This document shows, piece after piece, positions 5,799-48,249 of a stretch of 64,000 bases of DNA; the first letter of the stretch is position 1; the number at the start of each line of letters is the position of its first letter. The stretch is from a phage, in the sequence record PZ540767.1. One strand, 5' to 3'. The notes beneath the pieces are model-generated. The model saw nothing but the letters and a program-made list of their open reading frames with translations, did not search any database and was not told where the DNA came from. Position numbers and translations under genes: made by a program.

Positions 5799-5875
5799 TG
5801 GCTGGAGCATCTGGATTCGAACCAGAGAATGTCGGTATCAAAGACCGATGCCTTAACCTACTTGGCTATGCTCCA
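5799..5875 (-). tRNA. tRNA-Gln (anticodon TTG)
   Basis: Cloverleaf folded by eye on reverse complement: acceptor TGGAGCA/TGCTCCA, anticodon loop CTTTGAT, T-loop TTCGAAT, encoded CCA. Confidence 0.7.
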
Positions 5876-5878
5876 ATT

Positions 5879-5968
5879 TGGTGGAAGGTGAAGGATTCGA
5901 ACCTTCGGGCGCATCTCTGCACCTCCTGATTTCAAGTCAGGTACAATCGGCCTCTCTGACAACCTTCC
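5879..5968 (-). tRNA. tRNA-Ser (anticodon TGA), long variable arm
   Basis: Acceptor GGAAGGT/ACCTTCC, anticodon stem CCTGA/TCAGG with loop CTTGAAA, long variable arm, T-loop TTCGAAT, encoded CCA. Confidence 0.7.
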
Positions 5969-5974
5969 TAAATT

Positions 5975-6061
5975 TGGTGGGGGAAGATGGAGTTGAACCA
6001 CCCGAGCTTCTTAGGCAACAGATTTACAGTCTGTCCCGCTACCTCTACGGTCTATTCCCCC
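5975..6061 (-). tRNA. tRNA-Tyr (anticodon GTA), long variable arm
   Basis: Acceptor GGGGGAA/TTCCCCC, anticodon stem ACAGA/TCTGT with loop CTGTAAA, T-loop TTCAACT, encoded CCA. Confidence 0.6.
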
Positions 6062-6066
6062 GAATT

Positions 6067-6143
6067 TGGTCACCACGTAAGGATTCGAACCTTAGACACC
6101 TTGCTCCCAAAGCAAGTGCTCTACCAGACTGAGCTACGCAGTG
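6067..6143 (-). tRNA. tRNA-Pro (anticodon TGG)
   Basis: D-arm TAGCTCAGTCTGGTAGAGC, anticodon stem CTTGC/GCAAG with loop TTTGGGA, T-loop TTCGAAT, encoded CCA. Confidence 0.7.
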
Positions 6144-6209
6144 TAATTAGCCCTCTACTGTCGCCATCCAGTAATCCAGTTGGAATCGAACCAACACAGA
6201 GGGGTTATT

Positions 6210-6284
6210 TGGCGATGGGACTGGGACTCGAACCCAGCTGTCATAGATTAACAGTCTACCGCTTCACCGTTTAGCTATCCCATC
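6210..6284 (-). tRNA. tRNA-Asn (anticodon GTT)
   Basis: Acceptor GATGGGA/TCCCATC, anticodon loop CTGTTAA, T-arm CTGGG-TTCGAGT-CCCAG, encoded CCA. Confidence 0.6.
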
Positions 6285-17439: not shown

Positions 17440-18516
17440 ATGGCTATTAGACTGCAACAAATTGCTGCACCTAACTTTGCTGGTTCTAACCAATTACTGC
17501 TGGCAGCAAACCAGCAGATTGGTAATGCTCTCCAGGGGCTACAAGGCACCCTGGGGCAGTATCGTGATGAAGTAGTACGCCGTAATACAGCTCAGGCTGT
17601 AGGACTGCTTACTGGGGCTACAGATGCTAATGATCTGGCCCAGCGTCAACAGCAAGTAGCACAGTTGGTTCAGCAAGGGGATATTGACCCCACTCGTGTA
17701 TCTGAAGTGGCAGCAACCATGCCAGATACTTTGTTAGGACGTCAGACTAATCAGCTAAAGCTGAACCAGATTCAGACTGCACAGCATGATGCACCATTAA
17801 TGGGTGCTTATATGCAAGCTGTTATGTCTGGGGATCAGAATGCAGCTAAAGGTATTTTGTCGCAATTCCAGGGGGATGCTTCAGATGCTCTGAAGTTTGC
17901 CTCTGATTGGGATATCAAAAACCAGCAGTTGAATCTTCAACGGTCTGAACTGGCACAGCGTCAAGCTCAGTTTGCTGCAACTCAGGCAGCAGCTAAGGCA
18001 AGAGCCGGGCAGAGTAATGCACTGCTTAAAGCCTTACCTGGTTTGCTTAACACAGGTAATGATATTCAGGGGAAGGCTGAAGCCAGGGATTTACAGGCTA
18101 ATGCTCAGGATGCTCAACAACGTGTTGCTATGGATCCTATAAACAACCCTAAGCTTAATGTTGCTGGGTGGGCTGATGCTAACAGTGATGTTTGGTTTAG
18201 GGGCTGGGGAAGACAGGCAGACTCTGACAGAATTTTTAATGCTCTGAAGGATCAACCAGCTTTTAAAGCACTTAATCCTCAACAGCAGATAAATATCCTA
18301 GACGGTGCCCTTGCTAATGAAAACTCCCGCGAAGATAAGGGAAATGTTTCTACTGTAAATGCTGCTACTAAGTATCTGACTGATGCAACGAAGCGCTTAA
18401 ATACCCTGAAGATTACTTCACGGCAAGCAGAGGATGCAAAAGATCAGCAATCTGTTATGCAAGAGCAAAGGGATCGTTTAAATAAGCTGCTTCTGCCCTT
18501 ACTTTTCCAACAGTAA
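17440..18516 (+). CDS. virion protein (Gln/Ala-rich)
   Basis: 358 aa; immediately upstream of the giant polymerase gene. Confidence 0.5.
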   Translation: MAIRLQQIAAPNFAGSNQLLLAANQQIGNALQGLQGTLGQYRDEVVRRNTAQAVGLLTGATDANDLAQRQQQVAQLVQQGDIDPTRVSEVAATMPDTLLGRQTNQLKLNQIQTAQHDAPLMGAYMQAVMSGDQNAAKGILSQFQGDASDALKFASDWDIKNQQLNLQRSELAQRQAQFAATQAAAKARAGQSNALLKALPGLLNTGNDIQGKAEARDLQANAQDAQQRVAMDPINNPKLNVAGWADANSDVWFRGWGRQADSDRIFNALKDQPAFKALNPQQQINILDGALANENSREDKGNVSTVNAATKYLTDATKRLNTLKITSRQAEDAKDQQSVMQEQRDRLNKLLLPLLFQQ

Positions 18517-18560
18517 TGAGGTTACAATCTGGGTACTCCACAATACTAAGGAATACTCAG

Positions 18561-21500
18561 ATGGCTGGTAACTCATCTCCTCTGGACAAGTTTCTTGTCC
18601 CACAACAGGTAACAGGTCAGGAAGCTGCTCAGGCACTTCCTGCACCTACCCAACCAACTATCGCCCAGCGTGTGAATGATGCTTCTACTCGTATCCTGAA
18701 TAACCTCACAGGACAGGGTATGTATCCTACAGAAGAAGGCGAGATTGCTCGACTCAAACGAATTAATAACGAACAGTCGGCATATGCTAAAGAAGTAGCT
18801 GCAAAAGATTCAGATTACGGTTGGTCTTCTACCAACTTCTTAGATCCTGAAACGTCTTCATTGACTGATCGTACAGCTTCTACCTTTGTTAACTATGGCA
18901 AAGCTCTTACTGATGCTGTTAATGGTCTTGCAGGCAAAACAGATAAGACTTTCAAAACACTGGGTAATGTGCTGGATCAGGCTTCTATTCCTAACGATGC
19001 ACTGGATGCTTATCGTCGTGTGCAAGCTGGTAAAGGCACCGAAGCTGATAATGCCCTGTTAGATCGTCAGGGTGCCTGGTGGACACAGCCTATTGAAGTA
19101 AATCAATATGGTGTACCAGAGATGGGTAACCAGACTCTTCGTCAACGTCTGGATGCTATCAACGAACGTCAGAAAACCCAAAACCAGAGTAGCTATGACA
19201 ATCTTGAGAAACTAGCTAACCCTGTTCAAATGCAGCAAGCTGCTGCTGATATTGAGAAATCAATTGAAGGTAAATCAGGACTTGATAAATTTGCTGCTGG
19301 TTTAGCTGCTATTGCTCGTAACCCTGGTGCTGCTGGTCAGACTATGGTGGAGTCTGCTCCATACATGGTTGGTGGTATCCCGGGTATGCTTGCTTCCTCT
19401 GCTATGCAGGGTGGCTCAGTATTGTCTCAGTATCTGGATACCCAACGTAAAGCTTCTGATGGTCAGATCCCTACAGCTAAAGATGTAGCTATCGGTACTG
19501 GTTTGGGTGTTGTTGATGGTGCTCTGAACTTTGCAGAAAGTATCATTAACCGTACTGCTATGCTTCCAGGATCTAAAGTATTACCTGCCGGAGTTGCTGA
19601 TCGTCTGGTGAACGCAGCACAGCGCATCGCACCACGCAGCTCTACGGCTGCTGCTGCTCTTGCGCGTGTGACTGCTCCTACCCTTGACCTTGCTAAGAAT
19701 GCCTTAACTGAAGGTCTGGTATCTGGTGCTCAAAACCAGATTGAGGAGAACTATGCGAAGGGTAAAAATGAATGGGATACCAAAGGTAATGATGTTGCTT
19801 TCTTCCAGGGGATTGCTGCTGCTACTGGTTTTGGTGCTCCTCGTGCTGCACTTAGTACTGCTGGTGAAGTAGCTAATACTGCTGCTCAGGCTATGCAGAA
19901 ACGTACTGAAGCACAAGATCCTGTAGGCCAAGCTGCTCGTAATACCACCCCAGAAGACTTAATGAATCCACAGTCAGAAGGATATAACCCAGCTGCTGCA
20001 ATTCGTCGTGCTGGTATGGAGTGGACTCGTAACACTGATGCTACTACTGATGAACAAAAGGCTGAGATTCAATCTCAGGCTCAGTCAGCTATGGATGCTG
20101 CACAGAATGATCACCAGAATAACCTGGATATGATTAACCAGAGGGCTACTGCTGAACGTACTCTTGCTGACGCTGGTAAGTTTATTCCTGCTATTCAGGA
20201 GAGACTGGATCAACTTAGTAATGATCCTAATGCAGATCCTGATGCTGTTAATCAGTTACAAACCATTCTGGCTCAACAGACTGAAGCTCGTGATGCTGCA
20301 CAGCAACAACTGGATGCTATGCCTTCTCAGGAGGAACTGGCACAGTCTGCTACCCGTTCTGCTGAAGTACTGGATCAGGCTAAGTCTGAGTTTGGTAAGT
20401 TCTCGTCAGCTACTGGTATGAATACCAATACAGCTAAACCAGAGAACCCAACAGCTTCTGACATTATCAGCCACCCAATGTCTTATACCAATGAAGACCT
20501 GCAAGAGTTTGTGCGTAATGCTCCTGCTAATGCTACCCCTGCTGAATTGGGTACGCTTCGTGCATTAGCTGATGCCAAAGTTGCAGAGAATGCTGTTAAG
20601 ACTGGTTCTAAGGTTAATAGTGAGATCTTCAAATCCACTTCTAATAACCTGTCACTGGGTGATTACCAACAGGGTATTAACACTGCTGTACAAGCTGGTG
20701 ATACTAACCGTATCCAATCCCTGATGACTGGTATCAACAACTTTGAAACTTCCCATACTGCTAAAGCAGATATTGCTCAACAGTACCTTAATGAAGCTAA
20801 ACAGAATGGTAAGTCTTACCAGATCCTGAAAACTTCTAATGGCTGGGAGTTAAATACTGGCAAACGTCTGGATGCTAAAGCACAGGCTAAGAATGGTGGC
20901 TTTACTATCCACAAAGGCTCTACTGGTCTGGTTAACAATATTGTTAATGAGGCCAAAGCTATTACAGCCACTCGTCAGTATATGGAAGGCATTGCTACCC
21001 CATCTACTAACCAGAATGTGACTGGCTCGACTGAGCAAGTAGCAAGCCCGGAGGCGCAGCCCGAGGGTGCAGCTACTGTAGCAGGAGAGACAGGAGCACA
21101 AGAACAACAAGCACAACCAACAATCAGCCCACTGACCACACGAGATATTCGTGCAATGGATCAGGCAACGCTGGAAAAGGTTATGGCTACTACTCAGCAG
21201 GCTATGTCTTCTGACACTAATCCTGTACTGGCTCGTAACCTGGATGCACTTGACCGTGAGTGGACTCGCCGTGCTGATGTGGCTACTAACCAGAATCGTG
21301 GTGTTGATGCTCCTCACCGTAAACTGGATGACTCCTTTAAGCCTAAAGCTCAGGAGAATGAGATCCAGCGTTCACAGGCTGAGACTACTACTCAAACTGA
21401 GCACACCCAGGCTGACATTGACAATGAGTCTACTGGTTCAGAATCTCAACAAACTGCCCCAGTTAACGTAGATGATGTTGTTACCAACACTGATACTTTG

Positions 21501-24500
21501 ACTGAGACTCAACAAGATAATGTAGCTCATGGTGCTCTGAGTATCTTTGGTAAAGTTGGTGAGTCCCTGAAAGCTCTGCGTGAGAAAGCTTTGGCTGAAC
21601 CTAAAGGCTTACAGAACCTTGTGCTTACTGGTTTCAACCAGCGAGTTCGTCCAGGTTTTGGTAGCCCACTGGTAGCAGTGAAAGACTTTATCAATACTCT
21701 GAAAACTGCTGTGGATACTGGTAGCTTCACTGAAGTTAACCGTTTCCTGAAACAGCATATCAGTGAGTCGAAAGCTGAAGGTGCTAAACAGAAAGCTCTG
21801 CTGAAACAGTTTGTGGAATTCCATGATCACATCACAGCTAACCTGGATAACATCATCCGTACTAAAGCCCCTGAGTATCGTTATCAGGACTTTGCTCAGT
21901 TTATCTTGGATGAGAATGGTAACTTTGACTCCAATACTAAAACTGGTATTGCAGCAGGTATCTTCTCCTGGCTTGGTGAGAATGGGGATAAGATGTTCCT
22001 GAACCAGAGTGAAGTAGCTAAAACTCTGCGTATCAAAGAAGATCAGTTAACTCCACAAGCCATGTCTCGTATGGCTGATATTGGCTATCGCCAAGACTTG
22101 ATCATGTCCCAACTTGGTCAACGTATTTATCAGGCTATGGGCTTTGCTAAACGTGCTGACGTTGATCCTAACCGTGCCAGCAAATTGCAGAATGCTCTGG
22201 GTGCTTATGCTCTCCATGCCATGTATTCCAATGGCTATATGGAACAGTCTTTAATGACTGCTAAAGAGTACTTCGATCTGCAAACCATGGGTCTGGATGA
22301 ACAATCAGCTAAAGAAGCTGCACAAGCTTTCCAGAATGACTTTGGTGTTTCCCCTAACGATGCCAAGCACAAGATTGTGTTTAGCCGTCCTGCACGTAAC
22401 TTTGATGCAGAAGGTAAACCAGTAGCTATTGAAGCTATCTCTGACATTAAGAATGGAATGAAAGATACCCGTTCTCTCATGTCTAAGCTGTTCGGTTATG
22501 ATCCTGCTGTACGTGAGGTTCTGACCACTAAGCCTGCTGGTTTCAAACAGAAAGTCTTCGGTAAAATGAATCGTGAAGTTCCTTCTGTTTTGGCTGCTCG
22601 TATCAGCAAAGCAATGCAATATGACTACACCATTGATCAGGGTGTAGTGAATGCTATGCGTACTATGTCCACTGTAGATAATGCTGCTCTGCAACATATC
22701 TTTGGTGTACGTACTGATGCTGATGTGCCCAATGAAATGGAGATCTTCAAGAAAGGACGTGAAGCCAAGAATGCTGATATCCAACGTTCTATGGAAATGG
22801 GTTTAGACTTTGCTAACCGTAGGGGTACTAACCCATTCTGGATGCCTATGGAAGTCTGGACTAACCAACGTATTGGTGATCTGGCTTCAGAGTTCAACCC
22901 ACAGGGTTCCAAAGTACACCGTGCTATGGGTGGCTTGAGTGCTCACCAGGTAGAGATTTCTGTAGCCCGTAATGCTCCTGTGCTGGACGCAGATGGTAAG
23001 CCTACTCAGTATGGCCTGTTCCTTGTATCCCTGGCTCAGGGTATGGAAGAAGCTCCTGTAATTGGTGCTGATGGTAAGAAACTGAAGTCTGTTGATAAGC
23101 AGACCTATGCTACCTTCTTACCTGCTTTCCAGAATTACCTGCGTAAACCAGAGAACATTAAGGCTGTACGTGCTATGCAGAAAGTGATCGCTGGTTCAGC
23201 TACTACTGCTGATACCAACGTCATTAAGAATGCTGTGGCTGAGTATGGTATGAATGGTCAGTCTTTTGCTGCCCTGCATAACCTGGCTCAGTATGCTACT
23301 GCTCTGGAATCTGGTAAGTCTTCTGTTAAGCTGCTGGCTCAAATGGAATCGGACGGTGTTACTAACGGCCCTATCCTGACTAACATCCTGAATGGCTCTG
23401 CTGACTTCGATCTACTGAAGCGTGGTGGTATTTATCGTGAAGGTGACAATATTACCAACATGCCTACTTATCGTGAGTTGGGTGGTCAGGATTACTACGA
23501 GCTGCTGGGTGATGCTATGCGTCAGCATTGGGCTGATTACAAAACCAATGCACCTGCTAGTCAGCAAGGTCAGATTCAGGCTCTGGAATATTTCTCTACT
23601 GGTTATGGTGCTCGTTCTAAGGCCAAGACTCTGGCTACCCCATTCAACTACTCTGCTGGTATTCCAGCACTGAAAGCTGCTATGGGCCGAGCTACTGTAG
23701 AGGATGTTTACTCTAAGATTGGTTCCCTGATCCCACTGGCTAAAAGCAATAACAAAGCAGACTTTGCCAAGGCTTATGCTGAGGTGAGTAAAAACCTTTC
23801 TGTACTCCTGGGTCAGAAAGTAAATCTGCCACGTACTGCTGATGGTCTGGTTAAGTTCAGCCTTAACCCGGCTCAAACTAAACGCATCATTGATGTGGAT
23901 TCTCAGACTCGCGGTGTTGCTACAGAGACTGCTGTTAATGAGGTTGCTGCTGACTTCATTGCATCTCGTGATGCTAATACCAGTCTGGTTAACACAACCT
24001 TTACCCTGGCTAACCTTCGCTACAATGCTGCTAAAGCTGCACTGCTGAAGAAGCGTATTGCTGAGGGTAAAATCCCTGTGGATGCTAAAGGTGCTCCATT
24101 GGAAGGACTCACTCAGGCAGATCTGGATAAGCTATCCCGCATGATTCCTAACATGCCTTCTGCAACTGGTGTTCTGTCTGAGAATACCAAAGCTTCTGGT
24201 TACCCAATGGCTAAGGTGGAGAAAGCTTTTACTGCTAAGTCTCCTGCCACCAGCATTGATATCTACTTCAAAGAAGCTGCTAACCCTAAACCAGCAATGG
24301 ATGCTAATGGGATGCTGCTGAGTCAAGGTCTGGTAGGTGGATACAAATCTACCCAGTCTACTGTGACTGAGACTAAGCTGACTAACCCTGGTGTTGCTAT
24401 GGGTGCTAACGTTACTCAGGGTACTGATGCTGCAATCAGCTCTGATGTAATCAGCAAGATCGAAAGCCAGAACGTGCATGATGCTAACATCCTGTCTCCT

Positions 24501-27500
24501 GACAATGTGCTGAAAGGTGCTCGTATCCAGAACAAAGCTATGTTTGATGCTGTGGTTTCTTATCATCCTCAACATCTGGCTGCTTCTGCACTGCTGACTG
24601 AAGTTCGTAGTCTGGCTGGTGCTAACCTGTCTACCAACGACAAGGTTGCAGCGAAGAAAGCTCTGGAAGCCATGAAGACTAAGATCCTGGGTAAAGACTT
24701 CAAGGGCAACATGAAAGCTGCTCTGAACACTATCCTTAACCAGGCATATGATCGTGACATTAAGAAACTGGAGACTCTCTCTGAAGTCTATGCTGTTAAC
24801 CAGTATGGTACTGAGGGGGGTGAATACCTGATCACTGATACTGATCGTAAGAAAATTGGTGATGAGATTGCACGTCTGAAACGTAGTCGTGCTGCTGGCT
24901 TACAACGTATCTCTGCTATGTTCTCTAAGGGTAATGCCCCAAAGGCTGAGGCCAACCAGTATCCTGATAAGATGAGACAATACCTGTATGAGGCTTCGGC
25001 CTCTACAGGCTCTGTGTCAGCTTCTGAGGTGATGGCTCGTACCAAAGGTAAGTTTGCTAACCCAGTATATAACGAACTCCACAATCTCATTTCTGGTTTG
25101 ATTCCAGCTGATGCTGTGGTGAACGTACTGGATGGGCAGACTATGCCTAAGAATGTTAAGGGGCAGTCACTGCCCCAGAACCGTGATGCCATTGCATGGT
25201 CTTATCAAGATAAAAACACTGCACAGGTTAACCTGTCACTCAGCAAAGAGGCTTCACCTGAAGTCTTGCTGCATGAACTGACTCACATTGCTCTGGGACG
25301 TGCAATTGCTACTGCTGATTCAAATCCAAAAGTAAAAGCTGTACTGGCCCGTACAGAGAAGCTAATGGGTAGAGTGACCAAGCTGGTTTCAGCTGATCCT
25401 CAATTGACTCAGAAGTTTGCCCCTGCTTTGGCTAACGTGGATGAATTTATCTCCTGGGGTATGACTAACCCAGAATTCCAACGTTACCTTGATACCATCA
25501 CTGGTGTGCCTGAAATCTCAGGTCGTAACCGTGGATGGTTGGGTACTGCCTTTAAACAGTTTGTGGATCAAATGTCAGGCATCTTTGCTGCTGTAACTGG
25601 TCGAGCTATTAATGCTCGGGTTACTACTGCTCTGGAAGCTCTGACCTTCGATACTGCACATCTGGTTCAGGCTATTAATCCTACTGCTATTGAGAGTCCT
25701 GTATCTTCTATCAGCCACCCTATGAGCAACACTAACAGTGCTGCTGATCAGGTAGCTAAGTTTAGCCATGTGGATATCTTTGATAACCTGGCTTCAACAG
25801 GTGGCAAGACTAACTCAGCACAGTTCACAGGTAACCTCCGTAATGTAATATCCACTGTGGCGGATCAGCTTTACGGTGCTTTAGGCTCCAGAGTCACCCA
25901 GAATGCCAATGAGAATTATACTCCTGGTCAAGTCTGGAATGAGGCTGTAGCCACTGGGAAAGCCCCTGTCAGCACCGAAGCACTGAGCAATGGGTTTGTA
26001 CTGACTAATCAGGAAGCCTTTGCTGTGGAGGCCATTGAGGCTGCTGTATCTGAATCTCTGGCTTCTGGTTTCACTTCACCAGTTAACCGGGAGATTCGTC
26101 GTACTTGGCAAGCTGCTAAACAATCCCTGAAACCAGAAGACTTCCATAATGGAAACTGGAATCAGGCAACTCAAGCAGAAAAACGAGCTGCTCAACAGAA
26201 ATGGAATTATCTGTTTGATGTAACGAATGACTCTGGTGAGTCCCAGCATCTGTCTCGTTTCGTTGCTATGGCTATTGGGCATGAAGACACCAGTAACTTA
26301 CTTGGCTTCCAGATGGAAGATGGTAAGGACTCTGGTAATACTGCCTTTGAACAGGCTACTGCTTACTTTAACCAGGCTGTTAATACAGTCTCTGGCATGT
26401 TGACCAATACCCATCAAGGACAAGCTGCAAATGCTCGTGCTCAAGCACTAGCTGAAAAGCTGATCCAGATTGAACTTAAGAACCGTGATACCACCATGAA
26501 TATTCTTACTGGTGGGATCGACAAAGTAGAGAATGCCTTAGATACGGCTGCTGCTAAGTCTAAACAGTTCCTGGGTAAAATCGTTAAAGCTACTGGTATT
26601 GATCAGTCCTCCAACAATGCTCTGAATGCTATGGGCAAAGTTGCAGGATTGGCTGCTCGTGATCAGCTGGGTAGCCTGAAAGAAACTATTAAAGAGTTCC
26701 GGGACTTTAATGCCCCTAGTACTCCAGAAGGTTCTCTGGCTTCCATTCTGACTGAAGCAACGAATGCTGATGATGTTCGTGCTCTGCATGAATCTCTGTT
26801 ACGTTCTACTAAACGTATTGAACAGGATCGTGCAACCTTAGCTGCTGTTACTGCTAAGAACTTAAATGAGATGTTTGATAACAATGGTCAAGACCTGACT
26901 AAAGAAGATCGTACAGCAATGACTTACTCACTGCTTCGTACTGATCTTCAGTCTGTGTTGCACATTGAAGGTATGAACCTGAATAACTTACATAAACTGG
27001 TTTCTAATACTGGTTATCGTAAGCAGCAGATCAATAACCTTGAGAAAACCATTAGCCAGTATGCTAACGGTAATGATAAGATCATTCGTGCCAAGGCTCT
27101 GGGATTCTGGATGGCTACTGGCAGAAATACCCTGGGACGTGATTTAGTTCTGAATGCAAAAGCTATTGCTACCGGAGCTGCTACTCACTATTCCACAGTA
27201 GGTATCGAACCGACTCTTGATGAAGTGAACGCCATTGATGCTCTGGCTTCAATGTACGCTCTAAGCTACACCAAGACCGAAAACCGTGTTCGCACTGCTG
27301 CTGTAATGGAACGTGAGCTTGCACGAGGTAAAGACAATGGCATTAAAATGCTGATGGCTACTTATGCGAACCTGATTGAGGATTCTGCTAATACGCTGTT
27401 TGCTGGTAACCAGTTGTCTCGCATTAAAGGCTATTTGCCTGAAGATACCAATCCTCATCATGACTTACGTGCGGTTGAGTCGGGGAGTGCAGATGAAGCA

Positions 27501-29198
27501 GCACTGGTGAACATGGGATACCAAAAAGTATCCCCACTGTCCCAGGACTCTTTGTCAAAACACTCTGGACGTGTACTGTATGTGACCAAAGAGAATGGGT
27601 ATCAACGAACCGTCTCTGGTACTTTCAGTTTAACTGGAAGCCAGCGTAAAGGTTCTTCCCTAAGTGGGGATCGTGCTGTTGCTGATCGTGTTCGAGCTGA
27701 CGAGTTAGAACAGTTAAGGCAAGCGTCCTATGCAGACGTGCGAGGGCGTGAAGCACTGTCCCACACTGCCTTTGATCCTACTCAGATCCAGGATAACCAT
27801 GTAGTGCCTGTATTAAGCACTGATGGTCATATCATGGACTTCCGTTACATGGCTACCCACAATACTCGTGACACGTTCCTTGATCGTAATAATGACTTTG
27901 CTGACCTTGTTGGTCGTCTGGCTGGTCAGAATATCGATAAGGGTGATGCCCCAAGCCAGAATGCTAAGATCCTGGAAGCTCTGCATGAAGACTCTAAGGC
28001 TAATATCCTGAAGAATCCTAATGCTTACTTTGAGATTGGGCCTAATGCACCTACTGAGCGAGGACGTGAGATCTGGGCAATGATGCCTTATGAAGCACGT
28101 ACTAAAGCTACTTCTCTGTGGGGTGCTGATCGTATGTATATTCGAAACGATCTGGTTAACCTTACTTTTGGCTTCCGTAAGTATTCACTGGCTAACATTT
28201 TTGATGTTGATCCAGAACAGCGTAATATTGCTCAGGGTGTTGCTGCTGGTTTACTTGAAGCTGCTTTTGGTGATAAGGCTAAAGCTTATGTAATTAAGGG
28301 TGAGCGTGGCATTCAGGAATTTATGCAGTCCTATAAGGACGTGATCGTTATTCGTAACCTGAAAACCCAGTTCAGTAATATTATGTCTAATACTGCTCTA
28401 CTGGCTGCTTATGGCGTTAACCCGGTACGTATGGTTAAAGATATCCGTACTGCTCTGGTTGCTGGGATTGACTACCGTAAACAGTACTCGCTGCTACTCA
28501 AGTATCAGCAACAGCAACGTGCTGGTATTGGTAACTTTGCTCAGATGGAGTCCCTGATCAATGAGACGCAGGATCGCTTGAATGCTAACCCTCTGGCTAA
28601 GTTTATTCAGGCAGGTATGATGCCTACCATCGTAGAAGACGTTCAGCCTGATGCTGATGGTTACACTTATGGTTCTAAGATCCGTAAGAAATTTAATGAG
28701 GTATCTGCCCATCTGCCAGCTTCTGCTGTAACAGCTGCTCGCTGGGCTGTGATTGATAAAGGTACTGCACCTCATAAATTCTTAAGTGATGCTGCTCAGT
28801 TCAGTGACTTTGCTGCTAAGTATGCTCTGTATAAGCACCTGACAGAACATGCCCGAGATCGCCTGAGTCATACTGAGGCTTTACAACGTGCATCTGATGC
28901 TTTTGTTAACTATGACATTCCAGCTACAGCTACTCGCCAATATCTGGATGATATGGGGATTACCATGTTTACGAAGTATCGTGTTCGTATCCAACGTGCA
29001 ATGTTCTACTTGATGGATAAACGTCCAGCATCTGTTATGGCACATATGGCAATTACAGGGCAGTTTACTCATGCACCTGATGCTATGGAGCCACTGTTTG
29101 CACGTAACTTAGGTAACCCATTCACACCTTCAGTATTGCAGGGTGGGAGTTTGTTGAATGTCCCAATGCCTTGGAACTTATTCAGAATGGCATACTAA
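18561..29198 (+). CDS. virion-packaged RNA polymerase (N4 vRNAP-like giant protein)
   Basis: Single uninterrupted ORF of about 3,550 aa; ATG at 18561 has an AAGGA RBS (first in-frame ATG at 18516 lacks one); followed by terminator. Confidence 0.85.
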   Translation: MAGNSSPLDKFLVPQQVTGQEAAQALPAPTQPTIAQRVNDASTRILNNLTGQGMYPTEEGEIARLKRINNEQSAYAKEVAAKDSDYGWSSTNFLDPETSSLTDRTASTFVNYGKALTDAVNGLAGKTDKTFKTLGNVLDQASIPNDALDAYRRVQAGKGTEADNALLDRQGAWWTQPIEVNQYGVPEMGNQTLRQRLDAINERQKTQNQSSYDNLEKLANPVQMQQAAADIEKSIEGKSGLDKFAAGLAAIARNPGAAGQTMVESAPYMVGGIPGMLASSAMQGGSVLSQYLDTQRKASDGQIPTAKDVAIGTGLGVVDGALNFAESIINRTAMLPGSKVLPAGVADRLVNAAQRIAPRSSTAAAALARVTAPTLDLAKNALTEGLVSGAQNQIEENYAKGKNEWDTKGNDVAFFQGIAAATGFGAPRAALSTAGEVANTAAQAMQKRTEAQDPVGQAARNTTPEDLMNPQSEGYNPAAAIRRAGMEWTRNTDATTDEQKAEIQSQAQSAMDAAQNDHQNNLDMINQRATAERTLADAGKFIPAIQERLDQLSNDPNADPDAVNQLQTILAQQTEARDAAQQQLDAMPSQEELAQSATRSAEVLDQAKSEFGKFSSATGMNTNTAKPENPTASDIISHPMSYTNEDLQEFVRNAPANATPAELGTLRALADAKVAENAVKTGSKVNSEIFKSTSNNLSLGDYQQGINTAVQAGDTNRIQSLMTGINNFETSHTAKADIAQQYLNEAKQNGKSYQILKTSNGWELNTGKRLDAKAQAKNGGFTIHKGSTGLVNNIVNEAKAITATRQYMEGIATPSTNQNVTGSTEQVASPEAQPEGAATVAGETGAQEQQAQPTISPLTTRDIRAMDQATLEKVMATTQQAMSSDTNPVLARNLDALDREWTRRADVATNQNRGVDAPHRKLDDSFKPKAQENEIQRSQAETTTQTEHTQADIDNESTGSESQQTAPVNVDDVVTNTDTLTETQQDNVAHGALSIFGKVGESLKALREKALAEPKGLQNLVLTGFNQRVRPGFGSPLVAVKDFINTLKTAVDTGSFTEVNRFLKQHISESKAEGAKQKALLKQFVEFHDHITANLDNIIRTKAPEYRYQDFAQFILDENGNFDSNTKTGIAAGIFSWLGENGDKMFLNQSEVAKTLRIKEDQLTPQAMSRMADIGYRQDLIMSQLGQRIYQAMGFAKRADVDPNRASKLQNALGAYALHAMYSNGYMEQSLMTAKEYFDLQTMGLDEQSAKEAAQAFQNDFGVSPNDAKHKIVFSRPARNFDAEGKPVAIEAISDIKNGMKDTRSLMSKLFGYDPAVREVLTTKPAGFKQKVFGKMNREVPSVLAARISKAMQYDYTIDQGVVNAMRTMSTVDNAALQHIFGVRTDADVPNEMEIFKKGREAKNADIQRSMEMGLDFANRRGTNPFWMPMEVWTNQRIGDLASEFNPQGSKVHRAMGGLSAHQVEISVARNAPVLDADGKPTQYGLFLVSLAQGMEEAPVIGADGKKLKSVDKQTYATFLPAFQNYLRKPENIKAVRAMQKVIAGSATTADTNVIKNAVAEYGMNGQSFAALHNLAQYATALESGKSSVKLLAQMESDGVTNGPILTNILNGSADFDLLKRGGIYREGDNITNMPTYRELGGQDYYELLGDAMRQHWADYKTNAPASQQGQIQALEYFSTGYGARSKAKTLATPFNYSAGIPALKAAMGRATVEDVYSKIGSLIPLAKSNNKADFAKAYAEVSKNLSVLLGQKVNLPRTADGLVKFSLNPAQTKRIIDVDSQTRGVATETAVNEVAADFIASRDANTSLVNTTFTLANLRYNAAKAALLKKRIAEGKIPVDAKGAPLEGLTQADLDKLSRMIPNMPSATGVLSENTKASGYPMAKVEKAFTAKSPATSIDIYFKEAANPKPAMDANGMLLSQGLVGGYKSTQSTVTETKLTNPGVAMGANVTQGTDAAISSDVISKIESQNVHDANILSPDNVLKGARIQNKAMFDAVVSYHPQHLAASALLTEVRSLAGANLSTNDKVAAKKALEAMKTKILGKDFKGNMKAALNTILNQAYDRDIKKLETLSEVYAVNQYGTEGGEYLITDTDRKKIGDEIARLKRSRAAGLQRISAMFSKGNAPKAEANQYPDKMRQYLYEASASTGSVSASEVMARTKGKFANPVYNELHNLISGLIPADAVVNVLDGQTMPKNVKGQSLPQNRDAIAWSYQDKNTAQVNLSLSKEASPEVLLHELTHIALGRAIATADSNPKVKAVLARTEKLMGRVTKLVSADPQLTQKFAPALANVDEFISWGMTNPEFQRYLDTITGVPEISGRNRGWLGTAFKQFVDQMSGIFAAVTGRAINARVTTALEALTFDTAHLVQAINPTAIESPVSSISHPMSNTNSAADQVAKFSHVDIFDNLASTGGKTNSAQFTGNLRNVISTVADQLYGALGSRVTQNANENYTPGQVWNEAVATGKAPVSTEALSNGFVLTNQEAFAVEAIEAAVSESLASGFTSPVNREIRRTWQAAKQSLKPEDFHNGNWNQATQAEKRAAQQKWNYLFDVTNDSGESQHLSRFVAMAIGHEDTSNLLGFQMEDGKDSGNTAFEQATAYFNQAVNTVSGMLTNTHQGQAANARAQALAEKLIQIELKNRDTTMNILTGGIDKVENALDTAAAKSKQFLGKIVKATGIDQSSNNALNAMGKVAGLAARDQLGSLKETIKEFRDFNAPSTPEGSLASILTEATNADDVRALHESLLRSTKRIEQDRATLAAVTAKNLNEMFDNNGQDLTKEDRTAMTYSLLRTDLQSVLHIEGMNLNNLHKLVSNTGYRKQQINNLEKTISQYANGNDKIIRAKALGFWMATGRNTLGRDLVLNAKAIATGAATHYSTVGIEPTLDEVNAIDALASMYALSYTKTENRVRTAAVMERELARGKDNGIKMLMATYANLIEDSANTLFAGNQLSRIKGYLPEDTNPHHDLRAVESGSADEAALVNMGYQKVSPLSQDSLSKHSGRVLYVTKENGYQRTVSGTFSLTGSQRKGSSLSGDRAVADRVRADELEQLRQASYADVRGREALSHTAFDPTQIQDNHVVPVLSTDGHIMDFRYMATHNTRDTFLDRNNDFADLVGRLAGQNIDKGDAPSQNAKILEALHEDSKANILKNPNAYFEIGPNAPTERGREIWAMMPYEARTKATSLWGADRMYIRNDLVNLTFGFRKYSLANIFDVDPEQRNIAQGVAAGLLEAAFGDKAKAYVIKGERGIQEFMQSYKDVIVIRNLKTQFSNIMSNTALLAAYGVNPVRMVKDIRTALVAGIDYRKQYSLLLKYQQQQRAGIGNFAQMESLINETQDRLNANPLAKFIQAGMMPTIVEDVQPDADGYTYGSKIRKKFNEVSAHLPASAVTAARWAVIDKGTAPHKFLSDAAQFSDFAAKYALYKHLTEHARDRLSHTEALQRASDAFVNYDIPATATRQYLDDMGITMFTKYRVRIQRAMFYLMDKRPASVMAHMAITGQFTHAPDAMEPLFARNLGNPFTPSVLQGGSLLNVPMPWNLFRMAY

Positions 29199-41389: not shown

Positions 41390-43627
41390 ATGTCTTGTAA
41401 TTGCACCAACAATTGCAATTGTGGTGATCCATGTTCAGATACCCAGATTCGTCGCATTGTTGATGATGCTGTAGCAGACCGCGTAGAGGACTTGGAAGGT
41501 ATTGCTTCTGACGCCCAAGGTTCTGCTACTGCTTCTGCAAACTCTGCAAACCAATCTGCACAATCTGCTACACAATCACAGCAATTTGCAACCACTGCTG
41601 GTAACAATGCCACTTCTGCTGCCCAGTCAGCACAGCAAGCTGCTGTATCTGCTACTGCTGCGGCTGAATCCGCGTCAGCAGCTGTTCAGGTTACTACTGG
41701 TTTAAAACAAGTAGCTGATGAGCTGACTGCTACTGCTTCTGGTTTATCTTCTAAGGTTGATCAGGCAAACCAGAATGCTGAATTAGCTGAGACTGCTCGT
41801 GATGAGGCTGTTGCTGCTGCTTCCAGTGCTCAAAATAGTGCTGCTACTTCCACAGCATCTGCCAGTGCTGCTAATGTGGCTGCTTCGGCTGCTGCTTCGT
41901 CGTCAGGCACTGCACAAACTGCTGCGGGTCAAGCAGGTGAGTACGCTGTACAAGCTGCTGAGTTAGTTTCTAATCTTGATACTAAGATTGATACTGCTGT
42001 ATCTACTGCACTGGATAATGCAACCGAAGATGTAATTAATGCTGCTACTGAACAGGCTACTTCAGCTGCAAACTCTGCATCTGCTGCTGCCAGTTCTTTA
42101 GAAACTATGTCCAGCACTCTCGCAGCTGCAACTACTAGTGCGGTTGCTCAAGCTACTGAAGATGCTGAAGCTGCACGAGATGCTGCTGAGTTAGCTCGTG
42201 ATCAGGCTAATGCAATAGCAACCTCTGTGGGACTGGTGCCTGATGAGGCTACTGGTTTAGCAAATACCACTGAAGGGCAGTATTTTACTGTAGGTCAGGG
42301 TACAGAATCTGATGCTGCAACTATCACCTACCGTAATGTTGGCGGGGTTGCTGTGCCAGTATTTACTTCTGTGGGTACGGCTGCTTTTACCAAACTGTCT
42401 ACTAAGTTCTTAAACCTGGTAACCCAGGTAGACTATGGAAATGCTGTTGCTGGTTTTATCGATGATGCAAACATGTCTCCTCTGTTTATTAATCCAGAAG
42501 GGTATGTGATCATTAACAACCTCAATTTCCTTGAGCAAGTGCAAGCTCTGCTTAATAAAATTGATGCTTTCTATAACTTCTTTAATAGCTATCCATCTGA
42601 TGAGTATGTCCAGAAGGGTGGCTTTATTGATGATGAAGGCAAACTTCCCCTGTACTTTGACCAGTATGGGGATGTTTGGTTGGGTGATGGCCCGGTTAAC
42701 CTCAGCAAATTTGTGCAGGATTACTCAGCACTGGTTACTAAGGTTAATGATGCAGTTTATGAGATCAATGGAACAGGTAATATTGTCTGTCATGGTGACT
42801 CATTAACTGCTGGTGCAGGTTCTGCTACAGGTCGTGGGTATGTTGAACGTTTACGTACTCGTCTTGCCCCACAGGGTATTACTGTAACTAAACGTGCTGT
42901 AGGTGGGCAGGGTGCCCAGGCTATCGCTACTCGACAAGGTGGTTATGTTAACCTGTTAACGCTGGAGAATAACATTCTTCCTGCTGCTGTTCAGCCAGTT
43001 AACATTGTATCCAGTTCCCAAAATCCAATCACCAGCCAAGGTGGTGGGCCTATCTCAGGTATGCTTAATGGTATTCGTGGTACTGTAGCTGCTACTTTCA
43101 ATGGCACTACCCGCCTTACTTATACCTTTACCCGAGCAGAGGCTGGAACTGCTGATGTCTATATTGATCCTGAATCTCCGTTTATCAAAACTGAAGACGG
43201 TCATGAATACGATATTGACATTATCTGGCTTGGTCGTAATAACACCTCAAGCCCTGACTTGGCTCAAATTTGTTTAGATGCTCTGGATGCTTGTGTTAAG
43301 CATCTTAAAGCTAAAAATAAACGTTTTGTGGTAATGTCCATCCTCAATGGTGCGTACTCCACTGAGTACAAGGGAGGCGAGGTTTACCAGCGTATTATTA
43401 ATGCAAACAATGCCATTAAGTACAAATACCCTGAGAACTATTTGGAAGTTCGTGGGCCATTGGTGCGTTCTTATAACCCATCTGTTCCTCAAGATGTGGT
43501 TGATTTTAACAATGATATTGTTCCTTCAAGTCTCCGTAATGATGCTATCCACTTAAATGACAGTGGGTATGATATCCTTGAAGAACTGGTTTACAACTTT
43601 TTGAAAAGTAAAGGATGGGTAGCCTAA
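41390..43627 (+). CDS. tail fibre/spike protein with C-terminal SGNH (GDSL) esterase domain
   Basis: 745 aa; Cys-rich N-terminus, long Ala/Ser/Thr-rich helical repeat region, then IVCHGDSLTAGAG GDSL block with downstream D/H residues. Confidence 0.7.
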   Translation: MSCNCTNNCNCGDPCSDTQIRRIVDDAVADRVEDLEGIASDAQGSATASANSANQSAQSATQSQQFATTAGNNATSAAQSAQQAAVSATAAAESASAAVQVTTGLKQVADELTATASGLSSKVDQANQNAELAETARDEAVAAASSAQNSAATSTASASAANVAASAAASSSGTAQTAAGQAGEYAVQAAELVSNLDTKIDTAVSTALDNATEDVINAATEQATSAANSASAAASSLETMSSTLAAATTSAVAQATEDAEAARDAAELARDQANAIATSVGLVPDEATGLANTTEGQYFTVGQGTESDAATITYRNVGGVAVPVFTSVGTAAFTKLSTKFLNLVTQVDYGNAVAGFIDDANMSPLFINPEGYVIINNLNFLEQVQALLNKIDAFYNFFNSYPSDEYVQKGGFIDDEGKLPLYFDQYGDVWLGDGPVNLSKFVQDYSALVTKVNDAVYEINGTGNIVCHGDSLTAGAGSATGRGYVERLRTRLAPQGITVTKRAVGGQGAQAIATRQGGYVNLLTLENNILPAAVQPVNIVSSSQNPITSQGGGPISGMLNGIRGTVAATFNGTTRLTYTFTRAEAGTADVYIDPESPFIKTEDGHEYDIDIIWLGRNNTSSPDLAQICLDALDACVKHLKAKNKRFVVMSILNGAYSTEYKGGEVYQRIINANNAIKYKYPENYLEVRGPLVRSYNPSVPQDVVDFNNDIVPSSLRNDAIHLNDSGYDILEELVYNFLKSKGWVA

Positions 43628-44403
43628 TGGGTAACTTCATTAAAATGGGCACTACGCTGAGTAATGCCAACCTGACTAAATTAACTGCTGATGCGACCAT
43701 CGATAACAGCACTGTAATGCTGATTGACTTTGGGCGTAAAACTTCAGTGCCTAACCAAACAGATCTGGTTAACGGTGATACTGTTGGCAACCTGGTTGAA
43801 GGTCAAGCAGGGGGTTCTGTAATTACCGGAACCAAATTCCTCTTCTCTGCTGCTGGTAAGTACATTACTAAGCAAGAAGGCGATATCTCAACCCGAATCC
43901 AGTTGCCTGATGTTTGTAAGGTTAAATCTACTGATCGTAGCTTCCAATTTAGCCTGTGGTTTACCCACATTGATAAAACGGATACTCAGGGTAGCCAAGC
44001 ATTGGGTGGTTATGCATCTAACTCCAGTAACCAGATGCCTTTTGCATTTTACTGGTATGATGGTCAATACAACTTGGGTTGTGCTGGTTCACGTACTGCA
44101 TTTGCTACTCCAGCGGCGGGAACAGTACACCAGTTGTCTGTTGCTTGTGACCTAGATCTGGGTATTCGTAAGTTCTATCACAACAATGAACTGATCCGTA
44201 CTGAGACTAATATTGGTCTTAGTGAAATGACTCAGCCTGCTGCTGGATCTCTGCCTTGGTTGTTCTACCTGGGTGGTGGTTTTAACAGCCGTGGTAACGT
44301 TAAGATGCACCGAGCATGGCTTGATATTAACGGTGGTGGTGCTAAGTTCGATGCAAAAGTAGCTGCGGACTACAACACCAACTACAGCCGATTTGCGGCT
44401 TAA
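43627..44403 (+). CDS. tail fibre-associated protein, possible receptor-binding jelly-roll domain
   Basis: ATG at 43627 overlaps the upstream stop (TAATG); Gly/aromatic-rich beta-type composition; followed by terminator. Confidence 0.45.
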   Translation: MGNFIKMGTTLSNANLTKLTADATIDNSTVMLIDFGRKTSVPNQTDLVNGDTVGNLVEGQAGGSVITGTKFLFSAAGKYITKQEGDISTRIQLPDVCKVKSTDRSFQFSLWFTHIDKTDTQGSQALGGYASNSSNQMPFAFYWYDGQYNLGCAGSRTAFATPAAGTVHQLSVACDLDLGIRKFYHNNELIRTETNIGLSEMTQPAAGSLPWLFYLGGGFNSRGNVKMHRAWLDINGGGAKFDAKVAADYNTNYSRFAA

Positions 44404-44420: not shown

Positions 44421-44446
44421 AAGCCCCTTTATTAGGGGCTTTTTTA
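44421..44446 (+). terminator. rho-independent terminator
   Basis: AAGCCCCT-TTATT-AGGGGCTT hairpin followed by TTTTT. Confidence 0.8.
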
Positions 44447-44461
44447 TATATGAGGTTTATT

Positions 44462-44950
44462 ATGAAAATGTCGAATGAAGGACGCAAAGTAACTAAGTAT
44501 TTTGAGTCCCTTAAATTACGTGCTTACCCTGATCCTGCTACTGGGGGTAAACCATGGACTATTGGGTATGGTCATACTGGCCCAGATGTTTATCCTGGTT
44601 TGGCAATTTCGCAAACCAGAGCTGAACAGTTGCTTGATGCTGACCTTGCTAAGGCTGAAGCAGAAGTAAACAAGTATGGGCATAACCTTACCCAAGGTCA
44701 GTTCGATTGCCTTGTGGACATGGTATTTAATATGGGATCTGGTTTTATCCGGCCTGACAACATCAAGGGTGATTTTGATGACTTTGTTGCATCGGGTAAT
44801 ACTGCTGAGATGCGTAAACGTATTCCTCAATTCCGTATGGCCAACGGTAAAGTTATGAGAGGTTTAGTACGTCGTCGTGCTGCTAACCTTGCTACATGGG
44901 ACGGTAAGTCTGGTGATGAAGCAATTAAAATAGGGGTAAATGCTGCATGA
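44462..44950 (+). CDS. endolysin, GH24 T4-type lysozyme
   Basis: FESLKL...YPDPATGG...TIGYGHT catalytic E/D/T triad pattern and DCLVDMVFNMG motif; GAGG RBS before ATG 44462. Confidence 0.85.
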   Translation: MKMSNEGRKVTKYFESLKLRAYPDPATGGKPWTIGYGHTGPDVYPGLAISQTRAEQLLDADLAKAEAEVNKYGHNLTQGQFDCLVDMVFNMGSGFIRPDNIKGDFDDFVASGNTAEMRKRIPQFRMANGKVMRGLVRRRAANLATWDGKSGDEAIKIGVNAA

Positions 44951-45168
44951 AACTTGTAGAAAACTGGAAGTCAGCATGGAAGTGGTATTCTGTGCATATT
45001 ATGGTAGTGATCGTTGCACTTCCTGAAATCTGGAGTTACTTTCCACAGGAGTTTAAGGATTCATTACCTCCACATGCTCTTGCTGGATTAACAACTTTCC
45101 TGGGTATCTCAGCGATTGTTGCTCGTCTGGTTTCTCAGGAGAAACGTAATGATCAAGGATCTAATTAA
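44947..45168 (+). CDS. small membrane protein, candidate holin
   Basis: 73 aa; start overlaps endolysin stop (ATGA); two hydrophobic segments; inside lysis cassette. Confidence 0.45.
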   Translation: MKLVENWKSAWKWYSVHIMVVIVALPEIWSYFPQEFKDSLPPHALAGLTTFLGISAIVARLVSQEKRNDQGSN

Positions 45169-45658
45169 ACAGTATGCTGTTTTGTTAGGTTCTGTTCTGG
45201 CCCTGGCTTTACTTGCCGGGGCTTGTTACTTAACCTATGTTGTAACAGATAACCACTGGTCTGCTAAGTATTCTGGATTAGAACAGAAGTATAGTGATGC
45301 TTCTGCCAAAGCTACTCAGGAGGCCAGAGTCAAAGAATGGGAGTACCAAAACAATGTTGATGCAATCGCACAGCAAGGGGCTAAAGACCTCGCACAAGCT
45401 CGCTCTGACGCTGATATTGCCAATGCTTCTGTTAGCAGGTTGCAGCAACGGATCAACCGTTTACTTGCCAACACCAGCTCCGAAGATTCCGGCACTACCC
45501 AAAGAGGCAAGACAGCCAGAGAAGCCCTCGATCTGCTTGCCAACGTGCTCGAAAAATCTCTCGAACGAAACAGACAGTTGGCTGACTACGCCGACAAAGC
45601 CAGTAGTGCTGGATTCACCTGTGAAAAAGCCTACGACGCCATCCAATCAGGCAAGTAA
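45149..45658 (+). CDS. i-spanin (Rz-like)
   Basis: AGGAG RBS before ATG 45149; N-terminal TM helix then periplasmic coiled-coil region; an o-spanin-like ORF overlaps in another frame. Confidence 0.6.
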   Translation: MIKDLIKQYAVLLGSVLALALLAGACYLTYVVTDNHWSAKYSGLEQKYSDASAKATQEARVKEWEYQNNVDAIAQQGAKDLAQARSDADIANASVSRLQQRINRLLANTSSEDSGTTQRGKTAREALDLLANVLEKSLERNRQLADYADKASSAGFTCEKAYDAIQSGK

Positions 45659-45683
45659 TACTAAGTTGGTTTATTTCGTATAA
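45354..45683 (+). CDS. o-spanin (Rz1-like outer-membrane lipoprotein), out of frame within and past i-spanin
   Basis: Signal peptide ending in lipobox LLAGC, Pro-rich mature region; start is my best guess among in-frame ATGs. Confidence 0.5.
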   Translation: MLMQSHSKGLKTSHKLALTLILPMLLLAGCSNGSTVYLPTPAPKIPALPKEARQPEKPSICLPTCSKNLSNETDSWLTTPTKPVVLDSPVKKPTTPSNQASNTKLVYFV

Positions 45684-45734: not shown

Positions 45735-46178
45735 ATGTCTAAAGTCCCCTCTATCGGTGCTGGTGTTATCACTACCGATGATGTGCTGGCACAAGGCTAT
45801 GATTTTATCCCCCTGAAAATGGGTGGTATGGCTAAAGTGCCTGCTGATGTAGCCGCTGCTCAATCTAAAGACGTCACTGGTGCTGCTTATACTAAACCAG
45901 CAGCTCTGAGTCTGACTACTGATCTGACTGCTACTAAATCTGTTGCTGAAGGTGCTGCCCTGGAACTGAAAGTAGTTCCTGCTGGCGGTGTTGCACCTTA
46001 CAGCGTTACCTGGTTTAAAGGTGGCTCTGCTATCCAGACTCTGGGTAGTTCTACCCTTAACCTGGGTGCAGCTACTCTGGATATGGCTGGCTCTTACCAT
46101 GCTGAAGTCTACGACGCAGCTGGTAAAGAGATTCAGTCTACTACCTGCGTAGTGACTGTCACTGAAGCTGGTGGTTAA
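45735..46178 (+). CDS. Ig-like domain capsid decoration protein (N4 gp17-like)
   Basis: 147 aa; GAGGAAA RBS; beta-sandwich-type pattern YSVTWFKGG...GSYHAEVYD...CVVTV; followed by terminator. Confidence 0.55.
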   Translation: MSKVPSIGAGVITTDDVLAQGYDFIPLKMGGMAKVPADVAAAQSKDVTGAAYTKPAALSLTTDLTATKSVAEGAALELKVVPAGGVAPYSVTWFKGGSAIQTLGSSTLNLGAATLDMAGSYHAEVYDAAGKEIQSTTCVVTVTEAGG

Positions 46179-46196
46179 TAGCTACCAGCATGAATA

Positions 46197-46220
46197 AGCC
46201 CCCATTTGGGGGCTTTTTTA
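46197..46220. terminator. rho-independent terminator, likely bidirectional
   Basis: AGCCCCC-ATTT-GGGGGCT hairpin followed by TTTTTT; lies between convergent plus and minus genes. Confidence 0.8.
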
Positions 46221-47925: not shown

Positions 47926-48249
47926 TTACTTAGGTGAACCTGTGTAGGACGTCTTGCCTTCAAACAGCCTTTCTACATACTGGAAGATCTTAATCCCCAG
48001 ATAGGCAGATGCTGAAGTGAATATGGGTTGCGTAATCCCAGTAGGCAACTGACTTGCCACTACAGGGTAGGCATCCCATGCCAAATAGCCTGCGAGTAGA
48101 GCTGCTGACATTTCTGTAGCTGCTGCAACGAAGGTTACCTGACCATAGCGTAGGATTCGTCTCCCAACGGAGATTGCACCACTGACAGTACTAATCAGGA
48201 GAGCACCCAGTAGCTGAACATAAAAGTTCTGTTGCTGATCTGGGGTCAT
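47926..48249 (-). CDS. membrane protein with three predicted TM segments
   Basis: ATG at 48249 with GGAG RBS; hydrophobic segments throughout. Confidence 0.45.
   Translation of the reverse strand: MTPDQQQNFYVQLLGALLISTVSGAISVGRRILRYGQVTFVAAATEMSAALLAGYLAWDAYPVVASQLPTGITQPIFTSASAYLGIKIFQYVERLFEGKTSYTGSPK

Follow-up and report, generated by a model that had tools for sequence, protein, structure and literature searches.

The window analysed here, a 64,000-nucleotide (nt) stretch of phage DNA (sequence record PZ540767.1), carries at positions 44462 to 45683 of its plus strand four genes for an endolysin, a small membrane protein and the two subunits of a spanin pair (i-spanin and o-spanin), which very probably act as the late-gene lysis cassette of an N4-like podophage of Klebsiella and follow the canonical three-step Gram-negative pathway. 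The four-gene cassette is real, was correctly read in an earlier note on this DNA, every listed element of which is present as stated, and is an ordinary member of a well-known kind. Its gene structures and family memberships can be read directly: all four products match lysis families in PHROGs (phrog_7, phrog_1356, phrog_312 and phrog_11621), and the genes are tightly packed for translation, as the ATG of the 73-aa membrane protein overlaps the endolysin stop codon (ATGA), the end of this probable holin gene and the beginning of the i-spanin gene share 20 nt, and the o-spanin gene starts inside the i-spanin gene in its +1 frame. The genes are the following.

44462..44950, plus strand: soluble GH24 (T4/P22-type) endolysin, 162 aa (PF00959, phrog_7)
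44947..45168, plus strand: 73-aa protein with two transmembrane (TM) segments, probable holin, N4 gp62/DUF7940 family (PF25612, phrog_1356)
45149..45658, plus strand: i-spanin (Rz-like), 169 aa (PF10721 DUF2514, phrog_312)
45354..45683, plus strand, +1 frame of the i-spanin: o-spanin (Rz1-like), 109-aa precursor (phrog_11621)

The functional steps, with their timing and topologies, we infer as follows. The 73-aa protein would build up in the inner membrane and trigger at a set time, opening holes wide enough for a folded protein of ~18 kDa. The signal-less GH24 muramidase, accumulated in active form in the cytoplasm, would leave through these holes and degrade the peptidoglycan. The N-terminal TM segment of the i-spanin would hold this subunit in the inner membrane, and the o-spanin would be sorted as a lipoprotein to the outer membrane, both joining in a complex that spans the periplasm, is probably stabilised by disulfides through conserved cysteines, and would fuse or disrupt the outer membrane once the wall is lost.

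Endolysin and i-spanin

The endolysin gene starts at 44462, with the Shine-Dalgarno (SD) sequence GAGG 6 nt upstream; a start at 44450 was rejected, as it has no SD sequence and the relatives are all annotated at 489 nt. The earlier note had called the product a GH24 endolysin, which is borne out by matches to PF00959 Phage_lysozyme (E 7.7e-30, 104.2 bits against a cut-off of 22.3) and phrog_7 (E 1.6e-41), while the nearest solved structure is 8hp8 (endolysin mtEC340M), aligned end to end at E 6.9e-25. The Glu/Asp/Thr pattern is present as E16-x8-D25 with T34 in TIGYG and would be catalytic by likeness; going by the motif and by what is known of T4L and P22 lysozymes, we take E16/D25/T34 in YFESLKLRAYPD...WTIGYG to be the putative catalytic triad. 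Signal and TM assignments, here and below, were made by Kyte-Doolittle (KD) hydropathy and pattern matching. As had been claimed, the enzyme has no signal sequence, nor does it have a TM or signal-arrest-release (SAR) segment: its N-terminus MKMSNEGRKVTKYFESLK is hydrophilic, and the highest KD19 value across the whole protein is 0.63. Being soluble and without a hydrophobic N-terminus, it would therefore need a large-hole holin.

Close relatives do not all carry this enzyme. Five of them (cp20, P19-618, HS106, K17alpha62 and Halo_KS_7) match the query from the holin gene onward only, at 93–96%, and in P19-618 the endolysin slot (2544-3017 of the extracted locus) holds a 157-aa protein with no GH24 similarity, which matches the lambda lysozyme structures 1am7 and 3d3d at E ~6e-46 and is thus of the lambda-R type of transglycosylase. 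The holin and spanins of the sister phages with this lambda-R-type endolysin are nevertheless 94–96% identical to those described here. The opposite picture is seen in the Pectobacterium phage Possum (Possum/CB1-like; Schitoviridae, Cbunavirus), where the GH24 endolysin (1513-2007 of the extracted locus) is 86% identical to ours and the holins and spanins are only 50–54% identical (holin 54%, i-spanin 50%; the o-spanin core reaches 69%). Because the sister phages carry the lambda-R type, while the Possum GH24 enzyme is far closer to ours than are its holin and spanins, the endolysin gene behaves as an exchangeable module beside a vertically inherited block of holin and spanins. The much greater divergence of holin and spanins from those of Possum also suggests that the endolysin was exchanged horizontally. 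Both alternatives, GH24 and lambda-R-type, are soluble, which is consistent with a large-hole holin.

The i-spanin gene begins with ATG at 45149, preceded by the SD sequence AGGAG, and its product matches PF10721 DUF2514 (E 2.8e-25) and phrog_312 'Rz-like spanin' (E 2.1e-40). The N-terminal TM helix that had been described for it is a single strong one at about residues 9–29 (KD19 maximum 2.29, residues 10–28), and the KD19 scan gave no second hydrophobic segment, a pattern that would leave an N-terminal anchor in the inner membrane and a periplasmic domain. Near the C-terminus, Cys157 (motif TCEKAYD) is kept in all eight aligned sequences and is probably disulfide-linked to a cysteine pair of the o-spanin (CLPTC, see below).

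A further cysteine of the i-spanin, Cys26 (45224), lies within the TM segment in a lipobox-like LLAGAC. It is kept in the N4-like subgroup (AGACY or ALGCY) and absent in the Ralstonia phage RpY1 and the Salmonella phage Vi II-E1. We considered and rejected an i-spanin lipoprotein, as this cysteine is confined to that subgroup and its lipobox context is poor; it is probably a plain TM cysteine that could mislead lipoprotein predictors.

The overlapped o-spanin gene

The o-spanin gene was said to start inside the i-spanin gene in another frame and to run 25 nt past its stop, and both statements are exact. The +1 frame is open from 45282 to 45683, its likely start is the ATG at 45354, 10 nt after GGGAG, and its stop at 45683 lies 25 nt beyond the i-spanin stop at 45658, leaving 305 nt that code for both proteins. 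Starts at 45294 (GTG), 45297, 45357 and 45360 were also tried, and 45354 was preferred for its SD sequence at this distance and for the 29-aa signal that results; in the long +1 open reading frame (ORF), the phrog_11621 match starts no earlier than residue 32. The predicted signal consists of a basic n-region, the hydrophobic stretch LALTLILPMLLLAG and the lipobox LLAGC, with processing predicted before Cys30 (codon at 45441). The residue that follows this cysteine in the pattern match is Ser, not Asp, because of which the lipoprotein would be sorted to the outer membrane. In keeping with the Pro-rich body described earlier, the mature 80 aa hold 13 Pro (16%), and they include two further conserved Cys (CLPTC).

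An overlapped frame of this kind could also be a by-product of the codon composition of the i-spanin gene, with outer-membrane disruption done otherwise or not needed, and its length does little to argue for a gene, since, when the i-spanin gene was shuffled 5000 times among synonymous codons, 4.4% of the shuffled sequences held a +1 stretch of 133 codons or more without a stop. Length is thus weak evidence by itself, and it is conservation that, in our reading, settles the question. The +1 product matches phrog_11621 'Rz-like spanin' at E 6.4e-23, and a tblastn search with the 109-aa query found homologues in 159 phage records, from 98% down to ~42% identity, with hosts that include Klebsiella, Pectobacterium, Enterobacter, Erwinia, Salmonella, Edwardsiella, Ralstonia and Pseudomonas. 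We extracted nine of these loci, and in each the o-spanin ORF is open, lies +1 to the i-spanin and keeps the lipobox Cys, as LAGC, LVGC, LSGC, LTGC or LMGC (the lipoboxes of RpY1, LMGC, and Vi II-E1 were read from the translations, as the pattern search missed or mis-picked those two). The core CLPTCSxNLSxExDxW is kept in the Klebsiella, Pectobacterium, Enterobacter, Erwinia and Salmonella phages and is looser in Ralstonia RpY1, so that the lipobox Cys, the CLPTC pair and NLSxExDxW are retained at distant loci even though the i-spanin there is only 38–50% identical.

Among the close relatives the o-spanin is more conserved than the i-spanin (98% vs 96%), and within the dual-coding stretch two of 10 distinct variants alter both proteins, against 53% expected, numbers that are small and point to selection in the overlapped stretch. 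The SD sequence also lies at the right distance from the +1 start. What might still favour a by-product is that the ORF goes without annotation in the records of the closest relatives: close Klebsiella relatives annotate the endolysin, the holin and one 'Rz-like spanin' or 'endopeptidase Rz', and no o-spanin annotation was found in the inspected Klebsiella records or in the feature lists under the tblastn matches. Gene callers are known to be biased against nested genes (PMC6139136), and this bias accounts for the missing annotation. A by-product is effectively refuted by conservation, and we consider it extremely improbable.

With a true o-spanin gene as the preferred reading, essentially the whole cassette is a kind of feature already on record in Possum. 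There the order lysozyme, holin, Rz, Rz1 is identical and all four genes are annotated, with Rz1 in the +1 frame and an overhang of 22 nt in place of the 25 nt found here; the differences are the other host genus and the holin and spanins, which are far more diverged than the endolysin.

The layout also bears on the classification of spanins. In the survey of Kongari et al. 2018, the 'Bcep176' family is embedded-only and includes Salmonella phage E1 and Edwardsiella phage eiAU-183, and no family mixes embedded with overlapped or separated members (PMC6139136). Both spanins described here are homologous to those of Vi II-E1 (E1), and for the o-spanin eiAU-183 has a homologue as well, yet the o-spanin frame here overruns that of the i-spanin by 25 nt, outside the embedded layout of Bcep176. 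Measured from the i-spanin stop, the overlapped o-spanins end at +25 nt in the window and its close relatives and at +22 nt in Possum and SABI, and the embedded ones at −47 nt in the Erwinia phage MIF8 (o-spanin at 1986-2243 of the extracted locus), at −47 nt in Vi II-E1 (1414-1680 of the extracted locus) and at −14 nt in RpY1; MIF8 belongs to the same genus as the Klebsiella phage FBKp27. As the sequence after the ...ExDxW core is variable among the relatives, the architecture class would simply flip with the length of a poorly conserved o-spanin C-terminal tail. We claim relatedness to the Bcep176 family here and not formal membership, since the limits of that family follow the clustering threshold of the survey. 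A recent nonsense mutation in the MIF8 o-spanin was also considered, given the likeness of the stretch after its stop (PVKEVTIP vs PVKKPTTP), which is explained by constraint in the i-spanin frame and is evidence neither way.

The candidate holin and its rival

The 73-aa protein, described in the earlier note as a two-TM membrane protein that follows the endolysin, shows its two hydrophobic peaks at about residues 13–32 and 43–62 (17-residue mean 1.7 each). Its C-terminus, RLVSQEKRNDQGSN, is charged, and the topology would be class II-like with both ends in the cytoplasm (N-in/C-in). There is no dual-start motif: no in-frame start lies upstream of the gene and the next Met is inside TM1. The protein matches PF25612 DUF7940 (E 3.7e-22, 79.1 bits against a cut-off of 27) and phrog_1356 'holin' (E 5.1e-23), two families that it shares with gp62 of phage N4, which itself scores 3.5e-13 and 9.7e-28, respectively. 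Direct comparison with gp62 by tblastn gave 27% identity over 79 aa (E ~1e-5 to 2e-5), and the aligned proteins share an LP loop motif, an Arg close to where TM2 ends and, at the N-terminus, the pattern M-KLVxNWK..wkw.S. The earlier suggestion, that with a signal-less endolysin this adjacent small membrane protein is the likely holin, remains the best reading, with the nuance that the protein is a homologue of N4 gp62 and that its role as holin is inferred. A literature search for DUF7940 returned nothing under that name, and one for FBKp27 nothing useful.

For N4, the lysis parts have been described as gp60 with the embedded gp60a as spanins, gp61 as SAR endolysin and gp63 as pinholin, and gp62 was termed a non-essential 'lysis regulator' (bioRxiv 10.1101/2025.11.12.688109). 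The same study found that gp62 makes lethal lesions that can be triggered by carbonyl cyanide m-chlorophenyl hydrazone (CCCP) and that it slowly releases both the SAR endolysin and the soluble 17.8-kDa lambda endolysin (bioRxiv 10.1101/2025.11.12.688109). By analogy, the 73-aa protein would form holes that release the soluble endolysin of the cassette.

N4 belongs to the same virus family, and beyond the gp62 kinship its lysis system differs from the present one in several respects. In place of the SAR N-acetylmuramidase gp61 there is a soluble GH24 enzyme; no gp61 homologue was found in the 64-kb window (best tblastn E 0.22), and by sequence similarity no tblastn match to the pinholin gp63 better than E 2.3 occurs in the whole 64 kb, so that neither the gp61-family SAR endolysin nor the gp63 pinholin that marks the N4 type is seen in the window. 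A homologue of gp60 was likewise not detectable in the 64 kb. N4 gp60 belongs to phrog_6197 and its spanins are embedded, whereas those described here belong to phrog_312 and phrog_11621 and are overlapped, and homology of the spanins or the endolysin to gp60 or gp61, considered as a candidate, was not found by sequence comparison. The lysis genes of N4 lie between portal and tail genes, and the present ones after the tail-fibre genes. As there is no gp63 homologue in the window, the 73-aa protein is probably the sole canonical holin here.

The relatives offer a consistent picture. In none of those inspected does the cassette hold a membrane protein other than the gp62-family one, and in the sister phages a 94.5% identical holin is paired with the lambda-R-type soluble endolysin. 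A DUF7940-like protein also adjoins the endolysin in unrelated, non-N4 siphophages and podophages, such as Salmonella Vi II-E1 and Ralstonia RpY1, where it is annotated as holin. HS106, whose o-spanin is 96% identical and whose DNA is 96% identical to the window from the holin gene onward, has a reported latent period of 10 min (PMC10466807), by which this phage is without the hours-long lysis inhibition of N4.

Set beside the lambda S/R/Rz/Rz1 and P2 lysB/lysC systems, the cassette follows the same three-step logic, and its o-spanin is likewise a Pro-rich lipoprotein, by prediction, in the +1 frame, with the overlapped architecture of the P2 lysB/lysC type (definitions in PMC6139136). Unlike these paradigms, the endolysin comes first and the holin second, and the holin is class II-like (two TM segments) with no dual start. 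Its proteins are not homologous in sequence to lambda S or Rz/Rz1, and the enzyme is a GH24 muramidase in contrast to the lambda-type transglycosylase, which the sister phages do carry.

Several points weigh against the three-step reading with the 73-aa protein as holin, and two of them concern further features.

44421..44449, plus strand: intrinsic-terminator-like hairpin with T-run (hairpin 44421-44441; 8-bp stem, 5 GC pairs, TTTTTATATAT)
47926-48249, minus strand: 107-aa 'holin'-labelled membrane protein, three-TM-like (phrog_6854, E 1.4e-28)

TM1 of the 73-aa protein is moderately hydrophobic and holds His, Pro and Glu. The holin potency of the gp62 family is not established, because N4 gp62 alone acts late (~2 h) and is dispensable (bioRxiv 10.1101/2025.11.12.688109). 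The lipoprotein processing of the o-spanin is read from a pattern and is to be taken as predicted. The hairpin at 44421 precedes the cassette, which could be transcribed either by read-through or from an N4-type late promoter, and a scan of the plus strand upstream of the cassette, aimed at sigma-70-like promoters and not at N4-type late ones, found none. Finally, a second PHROG-labelled 'holin', the 107-aa protein, is encoded 2.3 kb from the cassette on the opposite strand.

This last point gives rise to a rival explanation, in which the gp62-like protein is an accessory regulator and the true large-hole holin is the 107-aa protein or another, unrecognised one. It would suit the slow, non-essential action for which N4 gp62 was called a 'lysis regulator' (bioRxiv 10.1101/2025.11.12.688109), and the 107-aa protein is of lambda S size, has hydrophobic stretches, matches a second PHROG 'holin', phrog_785, at 5.9e-4 and is 100% conserved in the closest relatives listed (FBKp27, cp20, pKP-BM327-1.1 and Tribble_ER49). 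Its gene, however, lies on the opposite strand within the early/middle replication gene block, and the family is nearly confined to N4-like phages (121 records, mostly Pseudomonas LIT1/LUZ7-like). In LUZ7, the one case inspected, the homologue has rIIA/rIIB-like genes as neighbours within the early/middle block; the lysis cassette is close by but on the other strand, and no endolysin gene adjoins the homologue. The protein has no Pfam match, its hydropathy peaks are weak except for the first, and the 'holin' label seems to be an unverified annotation, for which we found no support beyond the annotation itself. The gp62-like gene, by comparison, overlaps the endolysin stop codon and encodes the sole cassette membrane protein in every relative, and gp62 demonstrably lets soluble lambda R pass (bioRxiv 10.1101/2025.11.12.688109). 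We therefore regard this rival explanation as unlikely and keep the 73-aa protein as the probable holin.

Genome context and significance

The source is a Klebsiella N4-like podophage of the Schitoviridae, genus Efbeekayvirus, relatives of which have genomes of roughly 76 kb. A megablast search with the 1.35-kb cassette region matched 16 Klebsiella phage records, half of which (8/16) span at least 96% of the region at ~92–93% nucleotide identity; the full-cover records include vB_KpnP_Tribble_ER49, P184, pKP-BM327-1.1, pKP-BM327-1.2, GADU21 and FBKp27. The order endolysin, holin, Rz-like spanin in Efbeekayvirus records is the order found here. A virion RNA polymerase ORF of 3560 aa at 18516-29198, replication genes on the minus strand and a cluster of five tRNA genes at 5799-6284, likewise on the minus strand (Gln-TTG, Ser-TGA, Tyr-GTA, Pro-TGG and Asn-GTT), fit the N4-like picture.

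The cassette stands at the end of a short plus-strand late block, with tail-fibre genes upstream at 41390-44403, and is flanked by terminator-like hairpins at 44421-44441 and 46196-46215. The first of these closes the upstream tail-fibre genes, only ~20 nt 5' of the endolysin start, and the FBKp27 record has a terminator annotated at the equivalent place. Downstream, one more gene precedes the second hairpin.

45735..46178, plus strand: Hoc-like immunoglobulin-domain head-decoration gene, a non-lysis gene (phrog_4069, E 4.8e-20)

It follows directly on the spanins, a synteny that is kept in Klebsiella, Pectobacterium, Erwinia and Enterobacter relatives, and its position ahead of the next terminator makes it probable that this structural gene is co-transcribed with the lysis cassette. 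Of the upstream genes, that at 41390-43627 (plus strand) encodes a 745-aa tail-fibre-like protein. Its N-terminus, MSCNCTNNCNCGDPCS, is rich in Cys, a long region of low complexity is rich in Ala, Ser and Gln, and at the C-terminus there is a GDSL/SGNH esterase domain (PF13472, E 8.9e-8); the protein may be a capsule or lipopolysaccharide deacetylase. The next ORF, at 43615-44403 (262 aa) has a weak match only, to a PHROG of unknown function.

The main practical value of these results lies in annotation; the pairing of a gp62-family holin with its endolysin and the mixed spanin layouts leave the understanding of phage lysis unchanged. With the coordinates and start of the o-spanin gene in hand, the missing annotation can be added to the records of the closest Klebsiella phages, of which several are under study for therapy or biocontrol. 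The occurrence of embedded and overlapped layouts among related spanins is a small correction to the 2018 survey, with no new mechanism.

We lean slightly towards two modest proposals. In the first, this clade of N4-like phages relies for its soluble endolysin on a gp62-family protein as its sole and fully competent large-hole holin. In the second, the spanin family crosses the boundary between embedded and overlapped layouts by shifts of the o-spanin stop in a dispensable C-terminal tail. The combination of a gp62-family holin with a soluble GH24 or lambda-R-type endolysin, and with no gp63, offers a comparative handle on the role of gp62 in the model of N4 lysis and lysis inhibition. If the first proposal is true, the N4 'lysis regulator' gp62 would be a retained canonical holin, and the gp63 pinholin, the SAR endolysin and lysis inhibition of N4 would be a derived overlay.

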